Assembly: GCA_025058595.1 (NCBI GenBank)
Contig: JANXEK010000003.1
Span: 4,233-68,232 of the forward strand
DNA from: Candidatus Bathyarchaeota archaeon
GTDB taxonomy: Archaea > Thermoproteota > CALKCG01 > B24 > DRYS01
Reading direction: 5' to 3'
Length of the DNA stretch: 64,000 nt
A program made the position numbers and the translations under genes. Numbering within the stretch: position 1 is the stretch's first letter; each line of letters starts with the position of its first letter. A model generated the notes under the pieces. That model saw only the letters and a list, made by a program, of their open reading frames with translations. It made no database searches and was not told the DNA's origin. This document shows, piece by piece, positions 3,859 through 61,728 of the stretch.

Positions 3859-4515
3859 CTATCTCTTCAAAAATCTAAGCGCGACCAATATAGCTATCAA
3901 CACTATTAACGCCAATAGTATCGGCGTGATTATAACGTTCAAAGCTACCCCTGCATCACCCCTACTAGTTACGATTATCTTCCCGATAATACCTCCACCG
4001 TCGTCATTGTATGGAGGTGGACCACGATACATATACCATATGTTAGCTACAGCTTCCTCCATGCCTGTCGCGTAATCTCCCCTGATCCATACATAGTATA
4101 CTCCCGGTTCACCCGGCACTTTGAATGTATATCTCCAAATCCTCGTTATACCCGGGTAGTCACCTGATATACCGAACCATAACGGTAGGTAGTGCGTCGG
4201 CGGATTCCAGCTTCGAGACCAAGAGTAGAGAAGGAATAGCTGGTTAACCCTATCCGAGCCGTATATGCTCCAACGTTGAAATTTTATCTCTGCCACTACT
4301 AGATCGTTAGCTTCTACGATGATAGACTGCTGGTAACCCTCGGATAGTAGGTCTAAATCTATGTAATAGCATGTTATACCTGAATCCCACGTGTAAGGGA
4401 GAGGTATAGGTTCGATACCCCCTTCGATTGAATAGTTATCGTACCTCGCCATAGATATGGAGAGCGAAGCTTGTATCACCGCTAGTATTGCTAAGAACGT
4501 TTTCATCGACGACAT
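3859..4515 (-). CDS. Secreted/surface-anchored hypothetical protein
   Basis: N-terminal signal-peptide-like segment MKTFLAILAVIQASLSIS and a C-terminal hydrophobic anchor followed by the basic tail RFLKR. Confidence 0.45.
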   Translation of the reverse strand: MSSMKTFLAILAVIQASLSISMARYDNYSIEGGIEPIPLPYTWDSGITCYYIDLDLLSEGYQQSIIVEANDLVVAEIKFQRWSIYGSDRVNQLFLLYSWSRSWNPPTHYLPLWFGISGDYPGITRIWRYTFKVPGEPGVYYVWIRGDYATGMEEAVANIWYMYRGPPPYNDDGGGIIGKIIVTSRGDAGVALNVIITPILLALIVLIAILVALRFLKR

Positions 4516-4615
4516 AGAGCGTAGCTTCGCTATAAACTTGTGTCCTCTAGGTTGATAAAGGTTTAGTCTACCTCCAACTGTATAGCGGTCGATCTAACGG
4601 CTGCACGATTCGGAT

Positions 4616-5401
4616 CTACTCGATAAGCTTAAGATGATACGCTATACTTTTGATATCTTCTAGAGCGCTATCAGATCTAAGCTCCTCTCCTAGTAGGCAT
4701 GACTCGATTATCTCCTCATCGAATCTTATGAATCCATCTATCCTTAAACCCGCCTCTTCAGCCTTCTCTACTAGTATATCCTTCACTCTTCCATCAACCT
4801 TATTAGCTAAAACCCAAAACCTCTTACCTAGGCTTAAACTTACATCCCTAAGTAGAGCGGCTATCTCTATAGATTCAGCCGTAGGATCTATCAAAGCTAT
4901 GATCCCATCGACGGCCTCCTCTATCCCTCTACCTATATGCTCGATCCCTGCATCGGTATCTACTATAACCTTTTCATCGTTATCCAATACGAGGTTTCTA
5001 AGTAGTATCCTCGTAAGTATGTTGAACGGGCATGCGCATCCCTCGCCATACTCTCTAACCTTACCTATAACCGTCAACCCTACTCCATCCCTAGAATACG
5101 ATATATATTCATCTGGCAATACTCTAAGCCTTACACCAGACTCTGCTCTAGATAGCATGGAAGCTATATCGAGCTCTCTACTTTCCAGTTCGGCTTCATC
5201 CCTCTTACCTCCTATATAATCTATCAGGGGCTTCGGTGGTTTTACACCTAGAAGCCTGGGTAGGAGTATATTCGATTCATCAGAATCTACTATATAGACC
5301 CTGTACCCCTCGGATAATACCTTAGCTAGAAGGATAGATACGACGGTCTTCCCAGTCCCACCTTTACCGCATACCATAATCTTCACGGCGCATCGAAACA
5401 A
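4616..5401 (-). CDS. MinD/ParA/CooC-family P-loop ATPase
   Basis: Deviant Walker A motif VCGKGGTGKT at the N-terminus. Size of about 260 aa is typical of the CooC/MinD superfamily. Confidence 0.7.
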   Translation of the reverse strand: MFRCAVKIMVCGKGGTGKTVVSILLAKVLSEGYRVYIVDSDESNILLPRLLGVKPPKPLIDYIGGKRDEAELESRELDIASMLSRAESGVRLRVLPDEYISYSRDGVGLTVIGKVREYGEGCACPFNILTRILLRNLVLDNDEKVIVDTDAGIEHIGRGIEEAVDGIIALIDPTAESIEIAALLRDVSLSLGKRFWVLANKVDGRVKDILVEKAEEAGLRIDGFIRFDEEIIESCLLGEELRSDSALEDIKSIAYHLKLIE

Positions 5402-5490
5402 AGCTTTTTAGTATCCCTCGATTTATATGTTTCCAGCCTTACATAGGTAAACGTTAAGTATAGGATAACCTATCGAGCGGCTTCTAAGCT

Positions 5491-6348
5491 ATGCTAGGAG
5501 AATCTTTAGCGCTATTTACTGCTGTACTATGGGCCTTAACGCCTGTATTCTCTAAGAAAGCCCTAGGATACGCTACCGCTGTAGAGTTGAACCTAGTACG
5601 CAGTATATCAGGTTCTTTAACCCTAATCCTTATACTACCGGTCCTACGTGGAGGGTTAATCTTCCAGCTAGATCTATACGGTTTCATCCTACTACTAGCA
5701 GCTACCATTATAGGTATAGGTATCGGGGATGCTATATTCTTCAAGAGTATCGACGCTATAGGTGTCTCACGCGGTGTAGCCGTATCATCGGTACACCCGC
5801 TACTCGTACTGCTCATCTCGATCCTCGTACTCGGTGAAGATATAACCCCGATAAACACTATCGGGGGGTCACTCGTAGTGTTAGCGTCCATAATAGTAGC
5901 GTTATCAGGAGAAGAATCGAAGGGGGGTTCGAACCGGTATATCGAGGGTGTAGCGTTATCCTTAGCTTCAGCATTCCTATGGTCTGTAGCCATAACGTTC
6001 GTATCCATAGGCGTTAGGAGCGTGGATCCGTTGATAGGTAACGCCTATAGATTCCTCATACTAGCTTTGATCATGCTAATAGCATGTAGACGTAGGCTAC
6101 ATAAACTAAAGGATAGCAGGCTATTATTATGGGGGTCACTCTCAGGGTTAACAGGTCTATCCATAGGGACGACGCTATACCTAGAGAGTATAAGGTTGAT
6201 AGGAGCAGGAAAAGCCACCGTCATAACAGGTATACAGCCTATAATCTCGACTTTAGCAGCTGGCTTATCCCTCAAGGAGAGGTTAAACGTAAGGATATTG
6301 GTGGCTGTGCTACTAGCATCGGCCGGTATGATCCTCCTAGAGCTGTAG
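5491..6348 (+). CDS. EamA/DMT-superfamily transporter
   Basis: 285 aa with about 10 TM segments, a duplicated EamA-like architecture and a glycine-rich TM pattern. Confidence 0.65.
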   Translation: MLGESLALFTAVLWALTPVFSKKALGYATAVELNLVRSISGSLTLILILPVLRGGLIFQLDLYGFILLLAATIIGIGIGDAIFFKSIDAIGVSRGVAVSSVHPLLVLLISILVLGEDITPINTIGGSLVVLASIIVALSGEESKGGSNRYIEGVALSLASAFLWSVAITFVSIGVRSVDPLIGNAYRFLILALIMLIACRRRLHKLKDSRLLLWGSLSGLTGLSIGTTLYLESIRLIGAGKATVITGIQPIISTLAAGLSLKERLNVRILVAVLLASAGMILLEL

Positions 6349-6387
6349 ATCTGCATCCATCAAACCGTCTCCAGCTAAACATACTTC

Positions 6388-8706
6388 ATGGGATATAAAC
6401 TGCTATATACCGTGTATAGAGCTATATTCCGATCGAGGTGTTCGATGGGGATGGTATCCAGAGTGAAATCCTATAGTAGGGGTTTGAGGGAAGTTACGTT
6501 CTATATGCATCCTGATGGTAGGATGAGGTTACAGATCTGTAGCGATAACGTTATACGTATAACCTATACTTTAAGTTCGAAGCATCCTATGGATTGTAGT
6601 CTATCCGTTATCGATACACGTTTGAGGGAGGTTAATTGGAGTATTAGAAGGGAGCCCTCTAAGATTACGATAGCTACTTGTAGATTAGAGGCTTCTGTAG
6701 ATTTAGATACAGGTCTCATAGAGTTCTATGACCCATCAGGCTTCCTAATCGTCAGAGAGGATTCTAGATCGTTAACACCTGTGAAACTACCGGATGGGGA
6801 AGCTTTTAGCGTAGAGCAGGTCTTCCGTATCTCCGCTGATGAAGGTCTCTATGGTCTAGGTCAGCATCCAGGTATATTCAACTATAGAGGGCGAACCGTT
6901 ACGCTTATACAGAGGAATTGGGATGTAGCTGTACCATTCTTAGTATCGAGTAGAGGTTACGGTATACTATGGGATAACTACTCTATGACTAGATTCGAAA
7001 GCTTCACTGATAACGACTACTGTAAGATCAGGTTTTGGTCTGAGGCTTCAGATGCTATAGACTACTACCTCATCTACGGTCCGGATATCGATGATGTGGT
7101 AGCATCCTATCGTAAGCTAACCGGTGATCCGCCTTTACTGCCGGTATGGGCTTACGGATTCTGGCAATCTAAGGAGAGATATAAGACGCAGGATGAGGTT
7201 ATAGAGGTTGCTAAGACGTTTAGGGATGGAGGTATACCTATCGATATTATAGTGTTGGATTGGAAGTACTGGGGTAGGTATGGATGGAATGCTTTCAAGT
7301 TTGATGAAGAAGATTTCCCGGATCCGGCTGAGATGGTTGAAGAACTACATAAGCTAGGTGTACATATACTGATCTCTATATGGCCTATATTCGGTGAGGA
7401 GACAATCATCTATAATGATATGAAGGGGAGAGGATTCATATGTCCAGGTACTAGATGCTACGATCCCTTCAACGAGGAGGCTAGGAAACTGTATTGGGAG
7501 TATATTAGGAAGGCTTTCTTCGATATAGGTATCGATGGATGGTGGCTCGACGCAACAGAACCTGAGACTGGTGTAGGATGGGCTTCGTTCTATACACCAT
7601 TCCATTCATCGACTACGGCTATGGGTTCAGGTGCTAGATATCTTAATGCATACTCCCTTATGACGACTAAAGCCGTCTATGAGGGGCAGCGTAGTATCTC
7701 GGATAAACGTGTAGTTATACTCACTAGATCAGCCTTCACAGGTCAACAGCGGTACTCAGCTATAACGTGGTCTGGGGATATATGCCACGATTGGGGTATA
7801 CTGAGGGAGCAGATACCTGCAGGGTTGAATTTCTCCATATCGGGTATACCATACTGGACAACGGATATAGGCGGATTCTTCAGCGGTAACCCTGAGACTG
7901 ACTCTTACAGAGAGGTATTCGTCAGATGGTTTCAGTGGGGTGCTTTCTGTCCCATCTTCAGGGTGCATGGGACGACGTATGCTAAGGAGCCTTGGAGATT
8001 CGGATCAGAATATGAGGGGATTCTAGTCAAATATATTAGGTTGAGGTATAGGCTACTACCATACATATACTCTCACGCTTGGAGAGTTACGAGAGAGGGG
8101 TATACTTTGATGCGCCCCTTGATCATGGATTTCAGGATGGATCCAAGGGTAATCGATATAGACGATCAATATATGTTCGGATCAGCTATTATGGTTAGCC
8201 CTGTAACTCTCCCCAAGGTTAAAGCTAGAAGGATATATCTACCTAGGAATATAGGTGGATGGTACGATTTCTGGAGTGGGAAGCATATGGACGGGGGGTT
8301 ACAGATCGAAACATCTACACCTATAGATATAATCCCGCTACATGTTAAAGCCGGATCCATAGTGCCTATGGCCCCCCTCCTAAAGTATACGAAGGAGAAG
8401 CCTTGGGATCCTATAGAGATTAGAATATACCGTGGAACTGATGCTGTCTTCACACTATACGAGGATGATGGTGAAACATATAGCTACGAGAAGGGTGAGT
8501 ATAGTTTAACTCCTATAAGATGGTTTGAAGATGATGGTAGGCTGGTCATAGATGAGAGGGAGGGGAGCTATCCTGGGATGCTGAGGGAGAGGTTATTCCG
8601 TATAGTATTCGTTAGGGATGGATATGGCATAGGGGTCGAAGAGACAGAGACACCCGATAAGATAGTTAGATATAATGGTAGAGAGGTTGAAGTAAAATTC
8701 TCTTGA
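6388..8706 (+). CDS. GH31 family alpha-glucosidase/alpha-xylosidase. The real start is likely an internal Met near 6445-6451.
   Basis: GH31-like core with GIDGWWLDATEP (nucleophile-Asp region) and WQSKERY. The 772-aa size fits archaeal MalA/XylS-type enzymes. Confidence 0.8.
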   Translation: MGYKLLYTVYRAIFRSRCSMGMVSRVKSYSRGLREVTFYMHPDGRMRLQICSDNVIRITYTLSSKHPMDCSLSVIDTRLREVNWSIRREPSKITIATCRLEASVDLDTGLIEFYDPSGFLIVREDSRSLTPVKLPDGEAFSVEQVFRISADEGLYGLGQHPGIFNYRGRTVTLIQRNWDVAVPFLVSSRGYGILWDNYSMTRFESFTDNDYCKIRFWSEASDAIDYYLIYGPDIDDVVASYRKLTGDPPLLPVWAYGFWQSKERYKTQDEVIEVAKTFRDGGIPIDIIVLDWKYWGRYGWNAFKFDEEDFPDPAEMVEELHKLGVHILISIWPIFGEETIIYNDMKGRGFICPGTRCYDPFNEEARKLYWEYIRKAFFDIGIDGWWLDATEPETGVGWASFYTPFHSSTTAMGSGARYLNAYSLMTTKAVYEGQRSISDKRVVILTRSAFTGQQRYSAITWSGDICHDWGILREQIPAGLNFSISGIPYWTTDIGGFFSGNPETDSYREVFVRWFQWGAFCPIFRVHGTTYAKEPWRFGSEYEGILVKYIRLRYRLLPYIYSHAWRVTREGYTLMRPLIMDFRMDPRVIDIDDQYMFGSAIMVSPVTLPKVKARRIYLPRNIGGWYDFWSGKHMDGGLQIETSTPIDIIPLHVKAGSIVPMAPLLKYTKEKPWDPIEIRIYRGTDAVFTLYEDDGETYSYEKGEYSLTPIRWFEDDGRLVIDEREGSYPGMLRERLFRIVFVRDGYGIGVEETETPDKIVRYNGREVEVKFS

Positions 8707-52906: not shown

Positions 52907-53248
52907 ATGGATGTAGAGCTAGCTGTGGGTAGGAAGGTAAAGATTCTCGGATTAGATTATAGGAGAAGCGAAGATGAACTTATATGGTGCTCCTCGACTA
53001 TGGAGGTATCTAAGCTTTTCTGGGTGGATGGATACCTAATATGTATGGAGATCCCTGAGAAATCCTTCGAACACGAAGTAGAAACCGGGGAATTCATCAT
53101 AAGTCAGTTATGCTTTACACGATGCTCGAAGTATGAAAGGTTTAAACCTATAGCTAGAGGAGGACAGATACCTGTAGTAGATATGTCTTCGATGAAGCTG
53201 TTCCAAGGGATCGCTAAAGTATTATCTACCCACGAACCTTCAACCTAG
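52907..53248 (+). CDS. Hypothetical protein
   Basis: 113-aa ORF with no recognised motif. It is kept as a CDS because it does not overlap any other ORF. Confidence 0.35.
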   Translation: MDVELAVGRKVKILGLDYRRSEDELIWCSSTMEVSKLFWVDGYLICMEIPEKSFEHEVETGEFIISQLCFTRCSKYERFKPIARGGQIPVVDMSSMKLFQGIAKVLSTHEPST

Positions 53249-56200
53249 CTCTCCTACCCAGTATATAGCCTATAGCTGTAAAAGCTAAACCTACTAGAAG
53301 CAATATAATCACCATGCTTCTGATAGGAGGTATAACCTCAAACTTTAAAGACCTCTCTACGTAGGCGTGTAGCTTATCCTCGACTCTAACCATCGCCTGG
53401 TATACCCCTATCGGATCGTTTATACCTGGGGTGTAAGATAGGGTGAATGTTCCGTCGGCTATATATGACCCGCTTAAGTATACGGTGGATCCGTTAGGCT
53501 TCACTATCTCAAGCGTTACGTTGAGCTTATCCATGCCGGTTTCCTCATCCCTAGCGACTACTATCACCGTATAGGATTCAAACATCTGCTCCACCCTACT
53601 ATCTAGGATGTTTAGCGATAGTATCCTTGGAGGCTTATTCGATAGCTTCGACGCTACGGAGGATAAGAGGTCTATATTCCCAGCTGTAGCATTCTCGACA
53701 GGTTCTACATAGCCTATAAGCCTGCCTTCCTCGATATCCCATCTAACGTTGTAGCTCAGCTTACACCATAGATCGTCGAAGGAGAAAACACTAGAATGTA
53801 CGAACAGCTTAACCTTACCATCTAGATCCCTATAGATTAACGATGAGTAGAAGCTACTCGATACGTTAAGGAATCCATATAGACCAACCTCGATAGCCCT
53901 GAACATAACCTGTATCGATCCACCCATGATAGGTGTGGACACGTCGAAGAGCACACCGTAGGCTACCGTTAGAATGAGAGGGGCTAATTCTTCGAAGCCA
54001 CGTAGATCGAGCTTAACGGATGAATTGCTCCATCTATAATATGGTTCTTTAACCGCTTTCAACCCGTATTCTTCGAGTACGGTTCTGTAGCCGTACTTGA
54101 GAGCGAAGATAGCTGGACCTGCTAGTATGACTGCGGAGCCATCGCTATCTAGGAAGTAGTCTAGCGTCGAACGTATATCCTGGTACCCGTAGTATGGATC
54201 CGGAAGTATCAGGAGATCGATCCTTCTAGGCTGCTTTATATGTAGGCTAGCAGGAACCATCCTTATACCTTTAAGAGCTGAAGCCTTCCATAGGTCTGTA
54301 TACCATAGGTATAGATCGTTTCTACCCGGTATGAAATCTAACCTATCATGCCATAGGATGGTAGCTATAGGTTCACGTACATCTATACTTACAGGTATGG
54401 AGGCTATGATGCCGCTACTCCCCTCGAATATTAAGCTCCCGTTATATACCGCTGGCTTTAGATTATCGGGGATGTAACCGTAGATGGATGTATATACTTG
54501 GAAGCCTATATTCTTAGTCGAGTATGCTCTAAGTATAAGCGATGCGTTTCCATCTACGTAAGCTTTAACCCAGGATATAGGAGTCGAGGATATAAGCGTT
54601 ACGTTTAGGTAATCGATATCCCCAGGATACATGAATATGAAAGGTTTCTCGACGCCATCTATCCTTGAAGGTATAGATGCTACCACCTTAGGGTATAAGC
54701 CTACATATAGGTCGAAGATGAACGTATCGTACGATCTGTGGATCTCCCATGGTAGATTCTCTAGTTCGAAGCAGACCTTATAGAAGCCTTCAGGAAGCTT
54801 TGGTAGACGGAATTCGTAGTAGTTATCCGTATAACCGTCTAGATATAGATGGTAATCCATACCGTAATCATAGGTGCCGGAGAAGCTTTTGATCCTCATA
54901 GAGATCTTCGCATCTCTACTAGGTCCAAGATTTCTAACGAAAGCTTTGAAGATACCGGACGATCCCGGTGGTACGATCCTTATAATCTCGATAGGTCTTA
55001 GGAAAGCCTCCCCTACGCTTCTACCTATCAGGGTTGGGAATAGGGATGATACCTCTCTATACGAACTAGATATAGCGATATAGATTTTGATAGGTTTATC
55101 GCTGAACCTTAAGGTTAAAGTTACGTTCTTAGGATTAACCGTATAGGCATCTCTAGATCCGCTTAGGAGATAGTTGTAGGGTCTATCGGTTGAAGCTAAA
55201 CCTATAACCGTATAGCCGTCCCATACGATGATGCCTTCGAGTCCGCCTAGATACGCGGCTTCTAGGAAGCCTAACATCCCAGATGGGGTTAAAGTGACGT
55301 TTAGAAGATCTATATCGCCGCTAATCTTCGATAGCTTAAACTCTATATACGGTTGATTGATCGGTATAGTCGTTTCTATACGGATCTTTAGCCCTCCGTA
55401 TTCGAGGTCTGCGTACCCGCTCCATAATCTATCCGTGAAGCTAGTTAGTTTGAACCCAGCTGTAGCAGTCATAGATTTCTGGGTTATCCACCTATCAGAA
55501 TCGACGGGAAGAATCGATATGTATACATCCTCCAACACCCTAGCCTTACCATAGAATAGCCATGTAAGCATAGCTTTCTCGGAAATTATTAAATGGAATA
55601 AACCGTTACCGATCAACGTATAATTTCCATATACCTTATAGTATCGAGAGCCTATTTTAGATGTTTCCTGTCTACGATCCAGCGTTATGGATCTAAGCCC
55701 GCTAGCATACTCTACAGATACTCTAACCTCTAACGGTTGAAGATTCTCCTCGAGTATCCTGAGACAGCCATATGCGTCTACAAACCCGGCTCCCTGCTCG
55801 GTATAATCTACATCTTTAAACGGTTTAGCAGAGGCGACTAGACCGGCTATCAGAGCTTGAGGTGTAAGCCAAGGCTTAGCGGATAGGATCAGAGCTGTAA
55901 CACCTACTACATGAGCTGTAGCAGGTGATGTACCGGATATCTCTATATAGCCTTCGTAGCCATCATACTTGAATCTATCGTAGAGTACACCGCTACCTGG
56001 AGCTACTATCCTAACACCCGGGGCTACTATCAGAGGTGCGTATCTCAAGCTGTATGGATCAGGCCCTTTAGATGAGAAGAATGCTATACCGTTTCTCGTA
56101 GCCGCACCTACGGATATTACCGATGGGGTAGATGAAGGCGATACTACTGTCCAATGGTAGCCTAGATTACCAGCTGCAGCTACGAACACTATCCCTCGAT

Positions 56201-57068
56201 CGGTAAGCCTCTTCACAAGTCTATTGAATGGATGATCTTCGGGTAGAGGCGGATATACACCCCATGCAGCGCATACGACATCTGGCTTAATGGATTCTAG
56301 ATATTCTAGAGCTTTGAATAGAATCTCTATGGTCGAGTATGCTTCCAACCCTTCGGTTTTAAACGCTTTAACATTCACTATCAATGCATCTGGAGCAACC
56401 CCTCTAAATCTACCGTTAGATGCTAAACCTGAACCGGCTGCTATACCTGCCATAGCCGTTCCATGCCCATGTCTATCTTCGGCATCTTCCCCTTCGACGA
56501 AAGAAATAGATTCTACTATCTTACTTGTACCGTTAGCGAAGTAGAAGTCTGGATGACTACTATCCACACCCGTATCGACGATAGCTATACGCACACCCCT
56601 ACCAGTATACCCTATACTCCATAGCATAGTAGCGTTCACCATCTCCACCGTTTCGTTTAGAGGCGTAACTCTGTAGCCTGATAGGGTGAATCTACAACCT
56701 AGTATATCTATGTCTGCGAGTTCGACTAAGCTATCCATCCACACCGATTTGACATACCGGCTCTCCATAACATAGCTTAGCTCATCCTCTGAGGCTTCGA
56801 CGAAGACTACAGGCATCGTTTTAGAGATATACCGTACCTTAAGACCGTACGAGTGGATATCTGCGAGGCCGATGATATCGGTTAACTCTATTATGAAGAT
56901 CTTACTACCATTACACCGTGCGTAAATCTCATCTATATATCCAGGGATACGGTTGATTTGATGGATCGGAGGGAGGGTTATCTGTTGGAAGCCGAGGAAC
57001 GGGGGATAGAATATTTGTAGGAGTAGGGATGCAAGTATTATCGTGATATAAACCGATCGTTTCTTCAA
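53226..57068 (-). CDS. Extracellular S8-family subtilisin-like serine protease (pyrolysin-like). It has a very long C-terminal extension and a C-terminal TM anchor.
   Basis: Signal peptide, catalytic triad motifs VDTGVD, HGHGTAMAGIAAG and GTSPATAHVVGV, 1280 aa, and a C-terminal hydrophobic helix followed by RRARLKVRG. Confidence 0.85.
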   Translation of the reverse strand: MKKRSVYITIILASLLLQIFYPPFLGFQQITLPPIHQINRIPGYIDEIYARCNGSKIFIIELTDIIGLADIHSYGLKVRYISKTMPVVFVEASEDELSYVMESRYVKSVWMDSLVELADIDILGCRFTLSGYRVTPLNETVEMVNATMLWSIGYTGRGVRIAIVDTGVDSSHPDFYFANGTSKIVESISFVEGEDAEDRHGHGTAMAGIAAGSGLASNGRFRGVAPDALIVNVKAFKTEGLEAYSTIEILFKALEYLESIKPDVVCAAWGVYPPLPEDHPFNRLVKRLTDRGIVFVAAAGNLGYHWTVVSPSSTPSVISVGAATRNGIAFFSSKGPDPYSLRYAPLIVAPGVRIVAPGSGVLYDRFKYDGYEGYIEISGTSPATAHVVGVTALILSAKPWLTPQALIAGLVASAKPFKDVDYTEQGAGFVDAYGCLRILEENLQPLEVRVSVEYASGLRSITLDRRQETSKIGSRYYKVYGNYTLIGNGLFHLIISEKAMLTWLFYGKARVLEDVYISILPVDSDRWITQKSMTATAGFKLTSFTDRLWSGYADLEYGGLKIRIETTIPINQPYIEFKLSKISGDIDLLNVTLTPSGMLGFLEAAYLGGLEGIIVWDGYTVIGLASTDRPYNYLLSGSRDAYTVNPKNVTLTLRFSDKPIKIYIAISSSYREVSSLFPTLIGRSVGEAFLRPIEIIRIVPPGSSGIFKAFVRNLGPSRDAKISMRIKSFSGTYDYGMDYHLYLDGYTDNYYEFRLPKLPEGFYKVCFELENLPWEIHRSYDTFIFDLYVGLYPKVVASIPSRIDGVEKPFIFMYPGDIDYLNVTLISSTPISWVKAYVDGNASLILRAYSTKNIGFQVYTSIYGYIPDNLKPAVYNGSLIFEGSSGIIASIPVSIDVREPIATILWHDRLDFIPGRNDLYLWYTDLWKASALKGIRMVPASLHIKQPRRIDLLILPDPYYGYQDIRSTLDYFLDSDGSAVILAGPAIFALKYGYRTVLEEYGLKAVKEPYYRWSNSSVKLDLRGFEELAPLILTVAYGVLFDVSTPIMGGSIQVMFRAIEVGLYGFLNVSSSFYSSLIYRDLDGKVKLFVHSSVFSFDDLWCKLSYNVRWDIEEGRLIGYVEPVENATAGNIDLLSSVASKLSNKPPRILSLNILDSRVEQMFESYTVIVVARDEETGMDKLNVTLEIVKPNGSTVYLSGSYIADGTFTLSYTPGINDPIGVYQAMVRVEDKLHAYVERSLKFEVIPPIRSMVIILLLVGLAFTAIGYILGRRARLKVRG

Positions 57069-57102: not shown

Positions 57103-57648
57103 TTAACCCTCGCTTTCAACATCCATCTTAATCATAAGCTCGAGAAGTTTGCTTACATCGATCTCAGCTTTACCCCTCCATCCGATCCTCATAGTATCTC
57201 CGTCTCGTTCGAGGTATCCATACCTTACGAGCCTTCTCAGGGTAGCTTCCACAAACCAGCTTGGAAATTTAACTTCGAGTAGACGTATAAGCTCCCTAGA
57301 ACTTATAGAGCCCTGCCTTGAAGCTATGTATGCTACCGAAGCTGCGAGTATAGCAAGCTCATCTATACGCCAACCTGCAGATATAGCTTCGCTCATCCGG
57401 ATACCATCCTTCACTGTAATTAGGAATCTCGCTTGATCGGGGGTTGTCTCCCCCTCTTCGTATACCATCCTAACGTGTAAACCGTAGGAATCGATAATCT
57501 CGTTCAAGTATTCGAGAACCCTAAGGTAGTTTTTACCTACAGAGCGTTTAAGCTCCCATCCCTTTACACCAGGCTTCCTATGCCTCTGTAGAAGTAGGAG
57601 TTGTAGTGCTCTCCTAGCTCGCTCCTCTAGATCCCTTCTGGACTTCAC
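57103..57648 (-). CDS. ScpB-like winged-helix protein, a putative kite subunit
   Basis: 181-aa soluble protein starting 3 nt after the kleisin-like gene. The winged-helix pattern was not rigorously verified. Confidence 0.35.
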   Translation of the reverse strand: MKSRRDLEERARRALQLLLLQRHRKPGVKGWELKRSVGKNYLRVLEYLNEIIDSYGLHVRMVYEEGETTPDQARFLITVKDGIRMSEAISAGWRIDELAILAASVAYIASRQGSISSRELIRLLEVKFPSWFVEATLRRLVRYGYLERDGDTMRIGWRGKAEIDVSKLLELMIKMDVESEG

Positions 57649-57650
57649 CC

Positions 57651-58433
57651 CTACCCACCCATCCCTATGGATATAGCGATGGATCTAGGCTGATCTGATC
57701 CGCTACATGCCGTTACGTAGAATTTATCCGTAGATGGATCGTAGATCAGACCTATACGGCCTGATGATATTAGAAAGCTTAGCAGGTAGGCTCTGGTAAC
57801 TCTTTCAACCCAATTCTCCACGCCGATTATCTCGCTATACTCGACCCTACCTTTAACCGATAGGAGCTGCTTAACATGATACTCGATATCTGATAGAATA
57901 TCATCGAACCCTTTATCGTAGAGTAGACCCAGCTTAGAGGCTTCATCGAACGATAAGCTTAGATACTCCATAGAGCTCCTCGAAAACCTACTCCATCTAC
58001 CCTTCAAAGGCTTCAACCGATTCCAATAATCTATGGCTAGATCTAATGCCGGCTGGGTTAACGTATCGATGGATGCTATAGGAGTCCAGCATGATACGAG
58101 TATACGTGCTAGTATTCTATTTGAAGTAGCTTTAACCCTGGATTCTACGAATAAGGGGTCTACGAAGAGTCTACTAGATCTAAACCGGACCCATCTATCC
58201 TGGGATTCGACTACAGCGGATAGATCGTATAAAGCTTCGCCATCTAGACGTATATCGTCTAAGCTTGAAGCCGATTCGATGAAGCTTCTAAGCTTATCTA
58301 AAGACTCCTTCATATCTATCTGGAATGGATCGGCTCCACGTTTAACCGTAAGCCTACACTGTGCTATAAGCTTCTCAACCTCCCTTCTAGCGGCTGCTAT
58401 CTTACGCTTCGACATAGGCTTCGATCTTCCCAA
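57651..58433 (-). CDS. ScpA/kleisin-like protein, assigned tentatively
   Basis: 260 aa; overlaps the 3' end of the SMC-like gene by 32 nt; basic N-terminus; size and context fit ScpA. Confidence 0.4.
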   Translation of the reverse strand: MGRSKPMSKRKIAAARREVEKLIAQCRLTVKRGADPFQIDMKESLDKLRSFIESASSLDDIRLDGEALYDLSAVVESQDRWVRFRSSRLFVDPLFVESRVKATSNRILARILVSCWTPIASIDTLTQPALDLAIDYWNRLKPLKGRWSRFSRSSMEYLSLSFDEASKLGLLYDKGFDDILSDIEYHVKQLLSVKGRVEYSEIIGVENWVERVTRAYLLSFLISSGRIGLIYDPSTDKFYVTACSGSDQPRSIAISIGMGG

Positions 58434-60297
58434 CTTTAGATCTACCCCCCACCTTCTGGACTACTATAACGTTAGCGGCTTCAGCTGCTACAGGTAGTGG
58501 ATTCGGCGTTATAACTATATACTGGATCCCCTGCTTACCGGATAGACGTTCAACGATATGCTTGAAGACAGCTTCCCTATTCGCAGGATCCATGTGTACA
58601 TCGTATTCATCTAAAGCTCTAAACGGGCTTTTCACATGCTGCTGAAGCGCTATGAGGAATGTAGATACGGCTAGACTCCTCTCACCGCCGCTTTGAGTAA
58701 GGTTATTGAGAGGTATTGGATCCATACCGGGTACCCCCATGTATATCTCAACACCGCTTCTATCGATATCGTAGGGGTTCGATAATCTAGCATACCCTAT
58801 GTAGCCGAACTCTCCGAGCATAGCTTGAAATTCTTCATTAACATTTTCTAACAGCTTCTCCAAAGCCTCCCTCCAAACCTTAACCCTTTCATCTAATTCG
58901 TGTAGGAGTAGATTTTTATTCTCTGAGAGTATCTCAAGCTTAGATTTCAGCTCATCGTATATACCCCTATACTTCTCATACATGGAAGCTACATCCTCCG
59001 AGACGGATCCTAAAGCTCTAATCCTAGCTTCTACACTTCTCAGATCATCCTCTATCTCAGCTAGACCTCTAACGGTGGATGGCTTAGACGATGGACCGCC
59101 GACCTCGGATAGCATAGATTCAATCTTGGATTTCAGCTCAGATATCCTAGACTCTATATGCTTCCTCTCCTCTAGGAGTCTAGCTATCTCAGATGAAGCT
59201 AACGCCTCCTCAACCCTTAACTCCGCATACCGTTTAAATACATCCCGCTCCCTAACCCTCAACCCGCTGTAGATCCTATACATATCCTTCAAATCTGATT
59301 CAACCCTCCTTAGGTTTGCAATCTTACCTTTAACCTCAATTTCGAGTTCAACCGGTAGCTTACCCTTGTATACATCGAGTATACGTAGATCCTCTAATAA
59401 CGTCGATAGGAGTTTCTCCGAAGATATTATTCTCTCGAATAATCGATCCTCCTCGAAAACCACGTTTTCGAAATCCCCCTCCACATCTACTATCTTAGAT
59501 CTAGCATCAGAGCTTATCTTCTCGAGCTTCGATATCCTTCGACTATAACGTTCAACCCTATTCGATAGTTTAACAAGCTTATCCTCGAGATCGAGTATCT
59601 TAGCCCATGAAAACTCTAGTTTAAGTTCCCCCTCCCTCTCCCTAAGCTTCCTATACTGTATGAGCTTCTCATATTCTCTACGCCAGTATTCTAGGGTGGA
59701 TTCAGCGTCAGCCATCCTCTCTCGGAGAAGCTTCTCCTCTGATAGAACTTTAGAAAGCTTACCCCTAGCCTCGAGTATATTCCTTCGATAATCCTCGAAG
59801 CCTACAGCCTTCTCTAGAAGCTTAAGCTTCTCCTCCGGATGCATAGCTACGAACTCTTCTATCGTACCTTGATGCATTATTATGAATGGATTATCCGGAT
59901 CTAACCCCACCCCGCTTAGAAGCTCTACAACCTCCGATTTAGATTTCTCCTCACCTAATATATAGAAGCTATACGTTCCATCCCTCCTAAGTATCCTAGA
60001 TAAAGATAGGGTGGAAGATCTAATCGAAGGAAAAGGTCTGACCCTACCTTCACCGCTGTTATCAAAGATTAAAGTTATACGCGCTATATCGCTACCCCAT
60101 CTTATAAGGTCGCTGAGCCTCTTAGCTCTCTCAGTATAAGTTTGACCTAAAGCTACGGATATACCTAGAAGTATCGACGACTTTCCAGAGCCGTTCGGTC
60201 CACATACAAGGTTTAAGCCGGATGCAAGCTTAATCCTAGCATACTCGTAGCTCATAAAATTCTCTAATACCACTTCGCGTATGAAGGGCGCTGTCAA
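58402..60297 (-). CDS. SMC-like ABC-type ATPase with a long coiled coil and no hinge or zinc hook (compact SMC/RecN/Sph-like)
   Basis: N-terminal Walker A LVCGPNGSGKSS, about 400 aa of heptad-rich coiled coil, a C-terminal signature LTQSGGERSL, Walker B/D-loop ALDEYDVHMD and H-loop QYIVITPN. 631 aa with no CxxC hook. Confidence 0.75.
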   Translation of the reverse strand: MTAPFIREVVLENFMSYEYARIKLASGLNLVCGPNGSGKSSILLGISVALGQTYTERAKRLSDLIRWGSDIARITLIFDNSGEGRVRPFPSIRSSTLSLSRILRRDGTYSFYILGEEKSKSEVVELLSGVGLDPDNPFIIMHQGTIEEFVAMHPEEKLKLLEKAVGFEDYRRNILEARGKLSKVLSEEKLLRERMADAESTLEYWRREYEKLIQYRKLREREGELKLEFSWAKILDLEDKLVKLSNRVERYSRRISKLEKISSDARSKIVDVEGDFENVVFEEDRLFERIISSEKLLSTLLEDLRILDVYKGKLPVELEIEVKGKIANLRRVESDLKDMYRIYSGLRVRERDVFKRYAELRVEEALASSEIARLLEERKHIESRISELKSKIESMLSEVGGPSSKPSTVRGLAEIEDDLRSVEARIRALGSVSEDVASMYEKYRGIYDELKSKLEILSENKNLLLHELDERVKVWREALEKLLENVNEEFQAMLGEFGYIGYARLSNPYDIDRSGVEIYMGVPGMDPIPLNNLTQSGGERSLAVSTFLIALQQHVKSPFRALDEYDVHMDPANREAVFKHIVERLSGKQGIQYIVITPNPLPVAAEAANVIVVQKVGGRSKVGKIEAYVEA

Positions 60298-60531
60298 ATC
60301 GAATCACTACTTACAGCCACACCGTATTCTATAAAGGTTTATACGACATATTCGAAGAGAATATCCCTCTACATCTGTATGGATGGACTCTACATAAAGT
60401 TGAGAGCATCATGAGGGTAGAGTAACGATATAAACTGAGAGATAGATATGCTAAGCCTACGAATCTTGAACTCTTCCGAGGCGATACTATAGCTAAATTT
60501 TATAGGAAGCTTAATTTGTTTAAAGCAGGTT

Positions 60532-61728
60532 ATGCTTCCCCTAATACTCGTAGCTATCCCGCTTATAGTCGTAGTCTTACTAGTTGCTAGACGTGTGAAC
60601 TACGGTCTCGCATTGATTACCGGGGCTATCACTATAGCTCTGGTATCCGCGATGAAGCCAACTACCTTCCTAGAGACGATTATCTCAACGATGGCAGATC
60701 TAGAAACTTTAGAGCTCGCATCGATAGTAGCTCTGATACAGATCCTAGCTATATATATGAGTGAGTCAGGTATGATCGAGCAGCTGATAGATTCTATAAG
60801 GAAGCTTCTATCGGCGAAGGTTACTCTAGCGATACTGCCAGCTATCATGGGTAGTCTACCTATGCCGGGTGGAGCCCTACTATCAGCTCCGATGATAGAA
60901 GATACAGCTGGTAAGCTAGGATTAGATAGCGACGAGAAGAGCTTCGTAAACGTATGGTTTAGACATTGGAACTTCTTCGTATACCCGCTATCATCAGCTA
61001 TCATACTAGCTTCGACGTTATCTGGTGTAAGTCTTCATGAGCTTATAGCCGTTCAGATACCCATAGTCCTACTGTATGTAGGTATAGGCTATATAGCATC
61101 TCTATATCGGATAACTAACCTGAAAGAAGGTGGTATGGATCAGCAGAGCAGGAAGCTGATACACCGTATACTATTGAATATATCGCCTATAGCTGTCGCG
61201 GTTACTTTAACAATCGTAGGGTTGAATATGGTTTTAGCTTTAGCCATAGCTATAGCTTACACTATACTTGTCACACGTATAAGTTTTGAGAGGGCGTGGA
61301 AGGCTTTGAAGAAGGTTAACATAAGCCTCCCGTTAGCTATACCTGGCGTTATGATTTTCAGGTATACGTTGAATCGTTCAGGGTTGATAGAAGCAGCTCT
61401 ACCATATCTAACATCCACGTATCTTCCGCCGGTGGCGGTAGCGTTAGCGGTAGCATGGATAGTAGGTTTAGCGACGGCTATGCCTTCAGCTGGTATAGCC
61501 CTCGTAATCCCGATAGCATCTGCTATAATAGGAGATATGTCTGCATCTACAGCTTCCTCGGTCTATATATCGATAATATTCTCCTATCTCGTCTCACCGC
61601 TACACTTATGTCTAGTACTTACCGTAGGATACTATAGATCGAATATACATTCTGTTTATAAGAAGCTAATCCCATCGGCTATAACAGCATATATCCTATC
61701 ACTCGCTACCCTCAGCTTAATCCGTTGA
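60532..61728 (+). CDS. DUF401-family polytopic membrane protein, a putative transporter
   Basis: 398 aa with about 10-12 TM segments. The glycine-rich LPMPGGALLSAPMI loop is recalled from the DUF401/AF0261 family. Confidence 0.5.
   Translation: MLPLILVAIPLIVVVLLVARRVNYGLALITGAITIALVSAMKPTTFLETIISTMADLETLELASIVALIQILAIYMSESGMIEQLIDSIRKLLSAKVTLAILPAIMGSLPMPGGALLSAPMIEDTAGKLGLDSDEKSFVNVWFRHWNFFVYPLSSAIILASTLSGVSLHELIAVQIPIVLLYVGIGYIASLYRITNLKEGGMDQQSRKLIHRILLNISPIAVAVTLTIVGLNMVLALAIAIAYTILVTRISFERAWKALKKVNISLPLAIPGVMIFRYTLNRSGLIEAALPYLTSTYLPPVAVALAVAWIVGLATAMPSAGIALVIPIASAIIGDMSASTASSVYISIIFSYLVSPLHLCLVLTVGYYRSNIHSVYKKLIPSAITAYILSLATLSLIR

Follow-up and report, generated by a model that had tools for sequence, protein, structure and literature searches.

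The 64,000-nucleotide stretch of Candidatus Bathyarchaeota archaeon DNA analysed here (the window) carries on its minus strand three genes for what is very likely an SMC-kleisin-kite complex of the chromosome, of the SMC5/6-related type known from archaea; lacking a hinge, the complex would most likely function as an ATP-gated DNA clamp. The operon is a member of the archaeal "SMC5/6-related" SMC-kleisin-kite complexes that have already been described. The type of complex is therefore known, and what is of interest is its under-described architecture, in which a ~21-nm arm has neither hinge nor hook. "SMC5/6-related" archaeal SMCs were defined by Yoshinaga & Inagaki 2021, mostly from TACK metagenomes (Crenarchaeota, Verstraetearchaeota, Thaumarchaeota, and Bathyarchaeota), and are often found together with a canonical SMC (PMC8665677). 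In published maximum-likelihood trees, homologues from these TACK taxa fall together with SMC5/6 (PMC8665677; bioRxiv 10.1101/2024.01.07.573240). Subsequently, van Hooff et al. (2025) described TACK and Asgard operons in which an SMC5/6-related SMC is joined by a kleisin related to Nse4 and a kite resembling Nse1/3; these operons are separate from the condensin/cohesin-related set and include a listed Bathyarchaeota example (bioRxiv 10.1101/2024.01.07.573240). Bathyarchaeota B26-1, the namesake of the GTDB order to which that example belongs, is the source of one member of the SMC family described below, P0047 (647 aa). Taxa, gene order, and subunit types all match the published operons, indicating that the window operon is a further member of the described kind.

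The first gene of the operon encodes a protein that matches Pfam SMC_N at 3.6e-32 and, read by its motifs, is a full ABC ATPase with its catalytic residues intact. Walker A (GPNGSGKS, residues 33-40), the arginine finger (R57), the Q-loop (Q143), the signature (QSGGER, 535-540), Walker B (LDE, with D563 and E564 intact), and the D-loop (DVHMD) are all present, and GPNG(S/A)GKS, R57, Q143, QSGGER, D563-E564, and H568/D570 are invariant in 23 homologues. At the H-loop position (residues 592-599, QYIVITPN), the histidine is replaced by Thr-Pro. The same Thr-Pro occurs in every short-SMC family member examined, in insect SMC5 (QYFFLTPK) and SMC6 (QFVFLTPQ), and in one Asgard homologue, whereas the site reads ISLK in the 1170-1184-aa presumed canonical archaeal SMCs and ITHN in a presumed bacterial-type protein, labels that are based on length and motif and not on a database name. 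Similarly, a D-loop ending in MD is common to the short SMC and SMC5/6, but not to canonical SMC. The Thr-Pro replacement is, in its own right, a handy diagnostic motif that sets SMC5, SMC6, and the Asgard homologue apart from canonical archaeal and bacterial SMCs. The first-pass annotation of this DNA had called the protein an SMC-type ATPase, which the SMC_N match and the motifs read directly bear out. It had also listed Walker A, the signature, and a D-loop, all of which are there, and an H-loop, which is not, its place being taken by the SMC5/6-type replacement.

Profile comparisons point in the same direction as these motifs. With a profile of eukaryotic SMC5/6 heads, the concatenated heads reach 246 bits, compared with 205 bits for one of canonical SMC heads, and 51 of 53 family members score higher on the SMC5/6 profile (mean margin 48 bits). 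In this competition, the SMC5/6 and canonical reference groups cross-score at only ~122 bits. Among PDB sequences, the window protein is matched best by yeast Smc5 at 118 bits, Pyrococcus Smc at 116.6 bits, and Smc6 at 115 bits, with Smc1-4 at 49-70 bits and Rad50 at ~38 bits. The matches outside the family, among 1.84 billion representatives, included named insect SMC6 and SMC5 proteins, which rank among the best of them, as well as 1170-aa proteins with the canonical SMC head motif. Both profile score and motif place the SMC heads nearer to the SMC5/6 of eukaryotes than to canonical SMC. Of the NCBIfam models, SMC_prok_A ranks first with 228 bits, far short of its cut-off of 729, and the Rad50, RecN, ASRP, and arcadin-4 models reach 36-75 bits against cut-offs of 300-1087. 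A firm assignment to Rad50 or RecN, which had earlier been named as the outcome that would speak against an SMC complex, is not what these scores, far under their cut-offs, indicate.

The arm that emanates from this head is unusually short. An AlphaFold2 model built with a 23-sequence alignment (predicted local distance difference test score, pLDDT, 86.2) consists of an N-head (~1-165), a single continuous helix (168-309), a six-residue apex loop (310-315), return helices (316-399, 412-429, and 436-495), and a C-head (500-631). The break at 400-435, in which G403 and R410 are almost invariant in the 23-homologue alignment, is probably the SMC "joint". With ~140 residues, the predicted hairpin corresponds to an antiparallel coiled coil of ~21 nm, at roughly 0.15 nm per coiled-coil residue, while canonical SMC arms measure ~50 nm. 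In Foldseek searches, the best match of the model is 5xei, a Pyrococcus head-coiled coil-joint construct (E 2.3e-27, target TM 0.70), followed by Smc6 and then Smc5, with SMC head matches ranging from E 1e-27 to 1e-22. Pfam SMC_hinge gave no match to the protein at E<=1, and there is no CxxC zinc hook, the sole cysteine being C32. The apex columns of the 23 homologues are unconserved and rich in indels, varying by 0-60 residues. Both the absence of a hinge and that of a zinc hook had been noted in the first-pass annotation; the SMC_hinge search, the lone C32, the unconserved apex, and the AlphaFold2 hairpin agree with it.

The short form is characteristic of the family. Of 168 full-length members, 164 measure 548 to ~720 aa, with a median over all of 639 aa. 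As these come from many assemblies, the short form is the rule and not an assembly artefact, and truncation was rejected as its cause. Word searches of the two papers above and of the wider literature covered turned up no mention of a short arm or missing hinge for archaeal SMC5/6-related SMCs, which is suggestive only, as that coverage was incomplete. The one report of hinge-less SMCs that did turn up concerns marine Actinobacteria (PMC12153180), and these were set aside as a different, bacterial group.

Three Bathyarchaeota relatives (P0230, P0237, and P0244) are longer, at ~1016-1047 aa, and nest inside the short family in the neighbour-joining head tree. Their apex motif, C(D/E)(K/R)CGS, resembles a Rad50-type zinc hook placed on SMC5/6-like heads, and P0230 (locus L023:6001-9087) stands alone, without an adjoining kleisin or kite gene. 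Such proteins raise the question of whether the short SMC pairs with another member of the SMC family, either a canonical SMC or a long hook-bearing Bathyarchaeota paralogue, instead of with itself. Eukaryotic SMC5/6 is itself heterodimeric, and long relatives (~1030 aa, with a central CxxC and without a kleisin or kite gene) do exist in Bathyarchaeota. The long hook-bearing type, however, accounts for only 3 of the 168 family members examined, searches found no long paralogue for most of the operon-bearing lineages, and arguments against heterodimers of the two archaeal SMC types have been put forward by van Hooff et al. (bioRxiv 10.1101/2024.01.07.573240). A heterodimer of this kind is, therefore, very improbable. 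The 64-kb window has no second SMC-superfamily gene.

The two smaller subunits are of the Nse4 and Nse1/3 types, the first by way of its orthologues. The window kleisin has no direct match in Pfam, NCBIfam, PADLOC, or the PDB. Its orthologues, gathered by synteny from the same operon position, are 25-34% identical to it, and 9 of 12 are matched at their C-termini by Pfam Nse4_C. Three of these reach the Nse4_C gathering score of 26 bits (26.9, 30.1, and 30.9 bits). The family profile picks up human NSE4B/EID3 (E 0.0038) and yeast Nse4 (E 0.0064) in the PDB, and ScpA's C-terminal winged-helix domain at 0.33. The middle gene belongs, by the profile of its orthologues, to a family with a predicted Nse4-type C-terminal winged-helix domain. 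The C-terminus of the window protein is ~10-20 residues short of most orthologues and is devoid of their (E/D)W..W tail, and this early end is probably the reason why the protein itself escapes the Nse4_C model.

The third gene is, in its structural model, a tandem winged-helix kite that is nearest to Nse1/Nse3 (MAGE). The model is well supported (pLDDT 88.6) and folds into two tandem winged-helix domains. Its top four Foldseek matches are chains of the MAGE-G1/NSE1 (5hvq) and Nse1-Nse3-Nse4 (7dg2) entries, with MukE and ScpB ranking below Nse1/3. Sequence matches to MAGE are weak (0.018 in the window protein and 3.6e-4 in one orthologue), and the kite alignment profile gave only noise against the PDB. 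The kite has no cysteine at all, and thus no RING finger. One kite orthologue, P0126, has been named "RNase P/RNase MRP subunit POP5" by JGI, which looks like a mis-annotation. Neither ScpA nor ScpB was matched by any of the operon partners in Pfam or NCBIfam at E<=1. The two small genes had been proposed to encode ScpA and ScpB; they do appear to be kleisin and kite, and not unrelated proteins, but the Nse4_C matches and the Nse1/Nse3 structural matches put them in the Nse4 and Nse1/3 types instead.

These partners also bear on the view that the operon encodes a diverged canonical Smc-ScpAB condensin that has lost its hinge and performs the ordinary tasks of an archaeal SMC, loop extrusion and chromosome segregation. 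This view can draw on SMC_prok_A being the best NCBIfam model (228 bits), on the Pyrococcus Smc head-coiled coil-joint construct being the best structural match, and on the appearance of ScpB and the ScpA C-terminal winged-helix domain among the weaker matches. The SMC_prok_A score is nevertheless far below the 729-bit cut-off, the partners match Nse4_C and Nse1/3 and no ScpA or ScpB Pfam model, and the head motifs point to SMC5/6, as does the profile competition. Furthermore, the Bathyarchaeia rows examined in the table of van Hooff et al. list an ScpB-like kite as well as Nse4- and Nse1/3-related subunits (bioRxiv 10.1101/2024.01.07.573240). The presence of both subunit sets implies, as far as those rows go, that two separate complexes exist in these archaea. 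A hinge-less condensin is, consequently, an improbable identity for this operon.

The three-gene order is conserved well beyond this genome. A synteny scan of species-representative genomes yielded 14 loci with family members, 11 of which had downstream sequence, and in all 11 the order SMC, kleisin, kite is found, tightly packed. These loci belong to Methanomethylicia, several Bathyarchaeia, Thermofilales, one Thaumarchaeota metagenome-assembled genome, and others. The SMC family, to judge from its homologues, spans much of Thermoproteota. The idea that the operon is a lineage-specific chromosome organiser, put forward before, cannot be maintained given this range and the operons already published. 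Neither the window nor the 11 related loci have a fourth conserved gene beside the operon, nor a nuclease or other effector gene.

The absence of an effector is relevant to the possibility that the operon acts as an anti-plasmid or anti-virus sensor of the Lamassu or Wadjet kind, in which a short-armed SMC-like ATPase and small partners recognise foreign DNA. LmuB of Lamassu is similar in build (~650 aa, with coiled coils of ~20 nm), generally has a Gln in Walker B, and has a hook in many members; eukaryotic SMC5/6, for its part, restricts extrachromosomal DNA and episomes (PMC10586767). PADLOC models do match the ATPase: mad3 at 135.8 bits, LmuB at 77.7 bits over its full length, and JetC at 54 bits. 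On the other hand, SMC models outscore all three of these, and LmuB by far, the Walker B Glu is intact where LmuB generally has Gln, and there is no zinc hook. Neither LmuA, JetD, nor another nuclease effector is present in the window or conserved across the 11 related loci. The neighbours are housekeeping genes, such as an RNA polymerase cluster, and not defence islands, and the family is widespread over whole classes and not confined to single genomes. Based on these considerations, a defence function is quite improbable.

The preferred reading, a chromosomal SMC5/6-related complex, suggests a mechanism that can be sketched by analogy with Smc-ScpAB and Smc5/6. Two SMC subunits would engage head to head on two ATP, one kleisin would bridge the two heads, binding one at its neck and the other at its cap, and a kite dimer would sit on the middle of the kleisin. 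DNA would be held atop the engaged heads and within the kleisin compartment. As neither a hinge nor a hook is present, it would fall to kleisin and kite to keep the dimer together at the head end, and the short arms may perhaps zip up side by side, possibly over DNA. Without hinge or hook, only the kleisin compartment would be topologically closable, which, speculatively, makes a clamp likelier than long-range loop extrusion. The wide lineage spread and the housekeeping neighbours suggest that the complex, like SMC5/6 in eukaryotes, serves to maintain or repair the chromosome. It is possible, and offered tentatively, that the short members, which are most of the family, constitute a mechanistically distinct SMC-kleisin-kite class that is free of hinge and hook, dimerises at the head/kleisin end, and forms open-topped, ATP-gated DNA clamps, maybe resembling the ancestor of SMC5/6.

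Several points weigh against the SMC5/6-related clamp as proposed here. The stoichiometry, the mode of dimerisation, the clamping of DNA, and the biological role are all inferred. In raw sequence score, the family does about as well with single archaeal SMC heads as with SMC5/6. A BLOSUM-distance neighbour-joining tree of the heads, midpoint-rooted, gave no clade that unites the family with SMC5/6, and placement in such a clade relies on the published maximum-likelihood trees. The identity of the kleisin rests on orthology and position, as the window protein itself has no family match. Lastly, the confidence of the AlphaFold2 model is moderate at the apex, with a pLDDT of 63-71 at residues 301-320.

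The three open reading frames lie where the first-pass annotation had located them on the minus strand, in the order SMC, kleisin, kite, packed head to tail (Table 1). They are real genes and not chance open reading frames, as judged from SMC homologue E-values reaching ~1e-149 outside close relatives and from the three-gene order kept in 11 of 11 loci. The kleisin start is more likely the internal ATG, which is the start in the NCBI model and is favoured by the N-termini of orthologues, giving a protein of 254 aa. The SMC/kleisin overlap is then 14 nt; the 32 nt given earlier holds for the TTG start only, and the gap between kleisin and kite, previously put at 3 nt, is 2 nt. As the kleisin gene overlaps the SMC stop codon, translational coupling is likely. 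A TTTATAGAA element is found ~35 nt ahead of the SMC start codon, within a putative archaeal promoter region that was read from the sequence. A scan for sigma-70-type promoters and terminators is not applicable to archaea, and was given no weight in this call.

Table 1. Features of the operon and its immediate surroundings, in window positions.
Feature	Position	Strand	Remarks
SMC-type ATPase gene	58402..60297	-	631 aa, TTG start
H-loop position of the SMC protein	58510-58533	-	residues 592-599
Kleisin gene	57651..58433	-	260 aa with TTG start; 254 aa with ATG at 58415
Kleisin C-terminus	57651-57700	-	shorter than in most orthologues
Kite gene	57103..57648	-	181 aa, GTG start
Putative archaeal promoter region	60298..60345	-	5' of the SMC gene
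S8 subtilase gene	53226-57068	-	1280 aa, hydrophobic-looking ends; starts 35 nt past the kite stop codon
DUF401/CitMHS-like membrane transporter gene	60532-61728	+	divergent, upstream of the SMC gene

Among the flanking genes, the S8 subtilase is not kept beside the operon in relatives and is thus probably unrelated. In GCA_026414345.1, a second assembly, the DUF401/CitMHS-like transporter likewise adjoins the SMC gene. In several Bathyarchaeia, the operon is adjoined by an Rpo1 - L30e - NusA RNA polymerase cluster (L002:2052-6657, with equivalents in L004, L005, and L014). In three Thermoproteota loci, an Lhr-type helicase (DEAD, DEAD_assoc, WH_Lhr) takes this place (L006:3951-6788; L012:2398-5295; and, on both sides of the operon, L007:10216-13071 and 3987-6818). 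The adjoining helicase hints at a possible link to DNA repair.

SMC dimerisation, DNA entrapment, and loop extrusion are usually assumed to require the hinge. A large Thermoproteota family that keeps ATPase, kleisin, and kite without a hinge or hook represents a natural test of the head module alone. The short SMCs are also the nearest relatives that SMC5/6 has among prokaryotes, so that the way they are built bears on the beginnings of the eukaryotic complex. A more practical gain is in annotation: the NCBI labels of the three genes are "AAA family ATPase", "hypothetical protein", and "hypothetical / MAGE domain-containing protein", and these can now be named as parts of one complex.

Set beside known systems, the operon has most in common with the archaeal SMC5/6-related complexes, with which it shares the one-strand order SMC, kleisin, kite, the Nse4-type kleisin, the Nse1/3-type kite, heads that are nearer to SMC5/6, and a range that includes Bathyarchaeota, Verstraetearchaeota/Methanomethylicia, Thaumarchaeota, and Crenarchaeota; nothing was found that contradicts membership. 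The Rad50-Mre11/SbcCD, RecN, ASRP (ClsN/Sph1/2), and arcadin-4 families were considered and rejected. Rad50 models reach 38-71 bits where their cut-offs are 700-1087, C32 is the sole cysteine, and there is no Mre11-like neighbour; the NCBIfam recN model scores 40.5 bits against 407.85, and the Rkd4 model for arcadin-4 scores 36 against 860. For ASRPs, of which a zinc hook is typical (PMC9389158), the score is 74.7 against 300 bits and no CxxC is present, so that the earlier comparison with coalescin does not hold. Lamassu was set aside as the LmuB model scores 77.7 bits, below the SMC models, E564 is kept, and no effector gene is present. Wadjet/MksBEF was set aside as the 54-bit JetC match is confined to the coiled coil, MukE ranks below Nse1/3, and no JetD-like gene is found. 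The resemblance to LmuB is one of size and arm length (~650 aa, ~20 nm), and LmuB, Rad50, and ASRPs (ClsN, Sph1/2) share with the window protein a coiled-coil hairpin without a globular hinge; unlike them, the window protein has no zinc hook, keeps the catalytic Glu, has no effector or Mre11, and comes with a true kleisin and kite and with SMC-type heads.

Prokaryotic Smc-ScpAB shares the SMC-kleisin-kite logic, the expected 2:1:2 stoichiometry, and the head and joint fold. In contrast, the window SMC is half-length and hinge-less, its partners fall outside the ScpA/ScpB families, and its H-loop and D-loop differ. Canonical Smc-ScpAB was rejected on these grounds (631 aa, SMC_prok_A at 228 against 729 bits, no SMC_hinge, and no ScpA/ScpB match), and the earlier statement that the operon differs from both SMC-ScpAB and Rad50-Mre11 is consistent with the half-length protein, the missing hook, and model scores far under the cut-offs. 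With the core of eukaryotic Smc5/6, the operon has in common the Thr-Pro H-loop, the MD-ending D-loop, an Nse4_C kleisin, and a tandem winged-helix kite of the Nse1/Nse3 fold. It is not a Smc5/6 holocomplex, given the single hinge-less SMC gene, the cysteine-free kite, and the lack of further conserved genes. Whereas the eukaryotic complex is a Smc5/Smc6 heterodimer of ~1100-aa subunits, the window has one SMC gene of 631 aa without a hinge, from which a homodimer would be expected, and a single kite gene without a RING, with no Nse2, Nse5, or Nse6.

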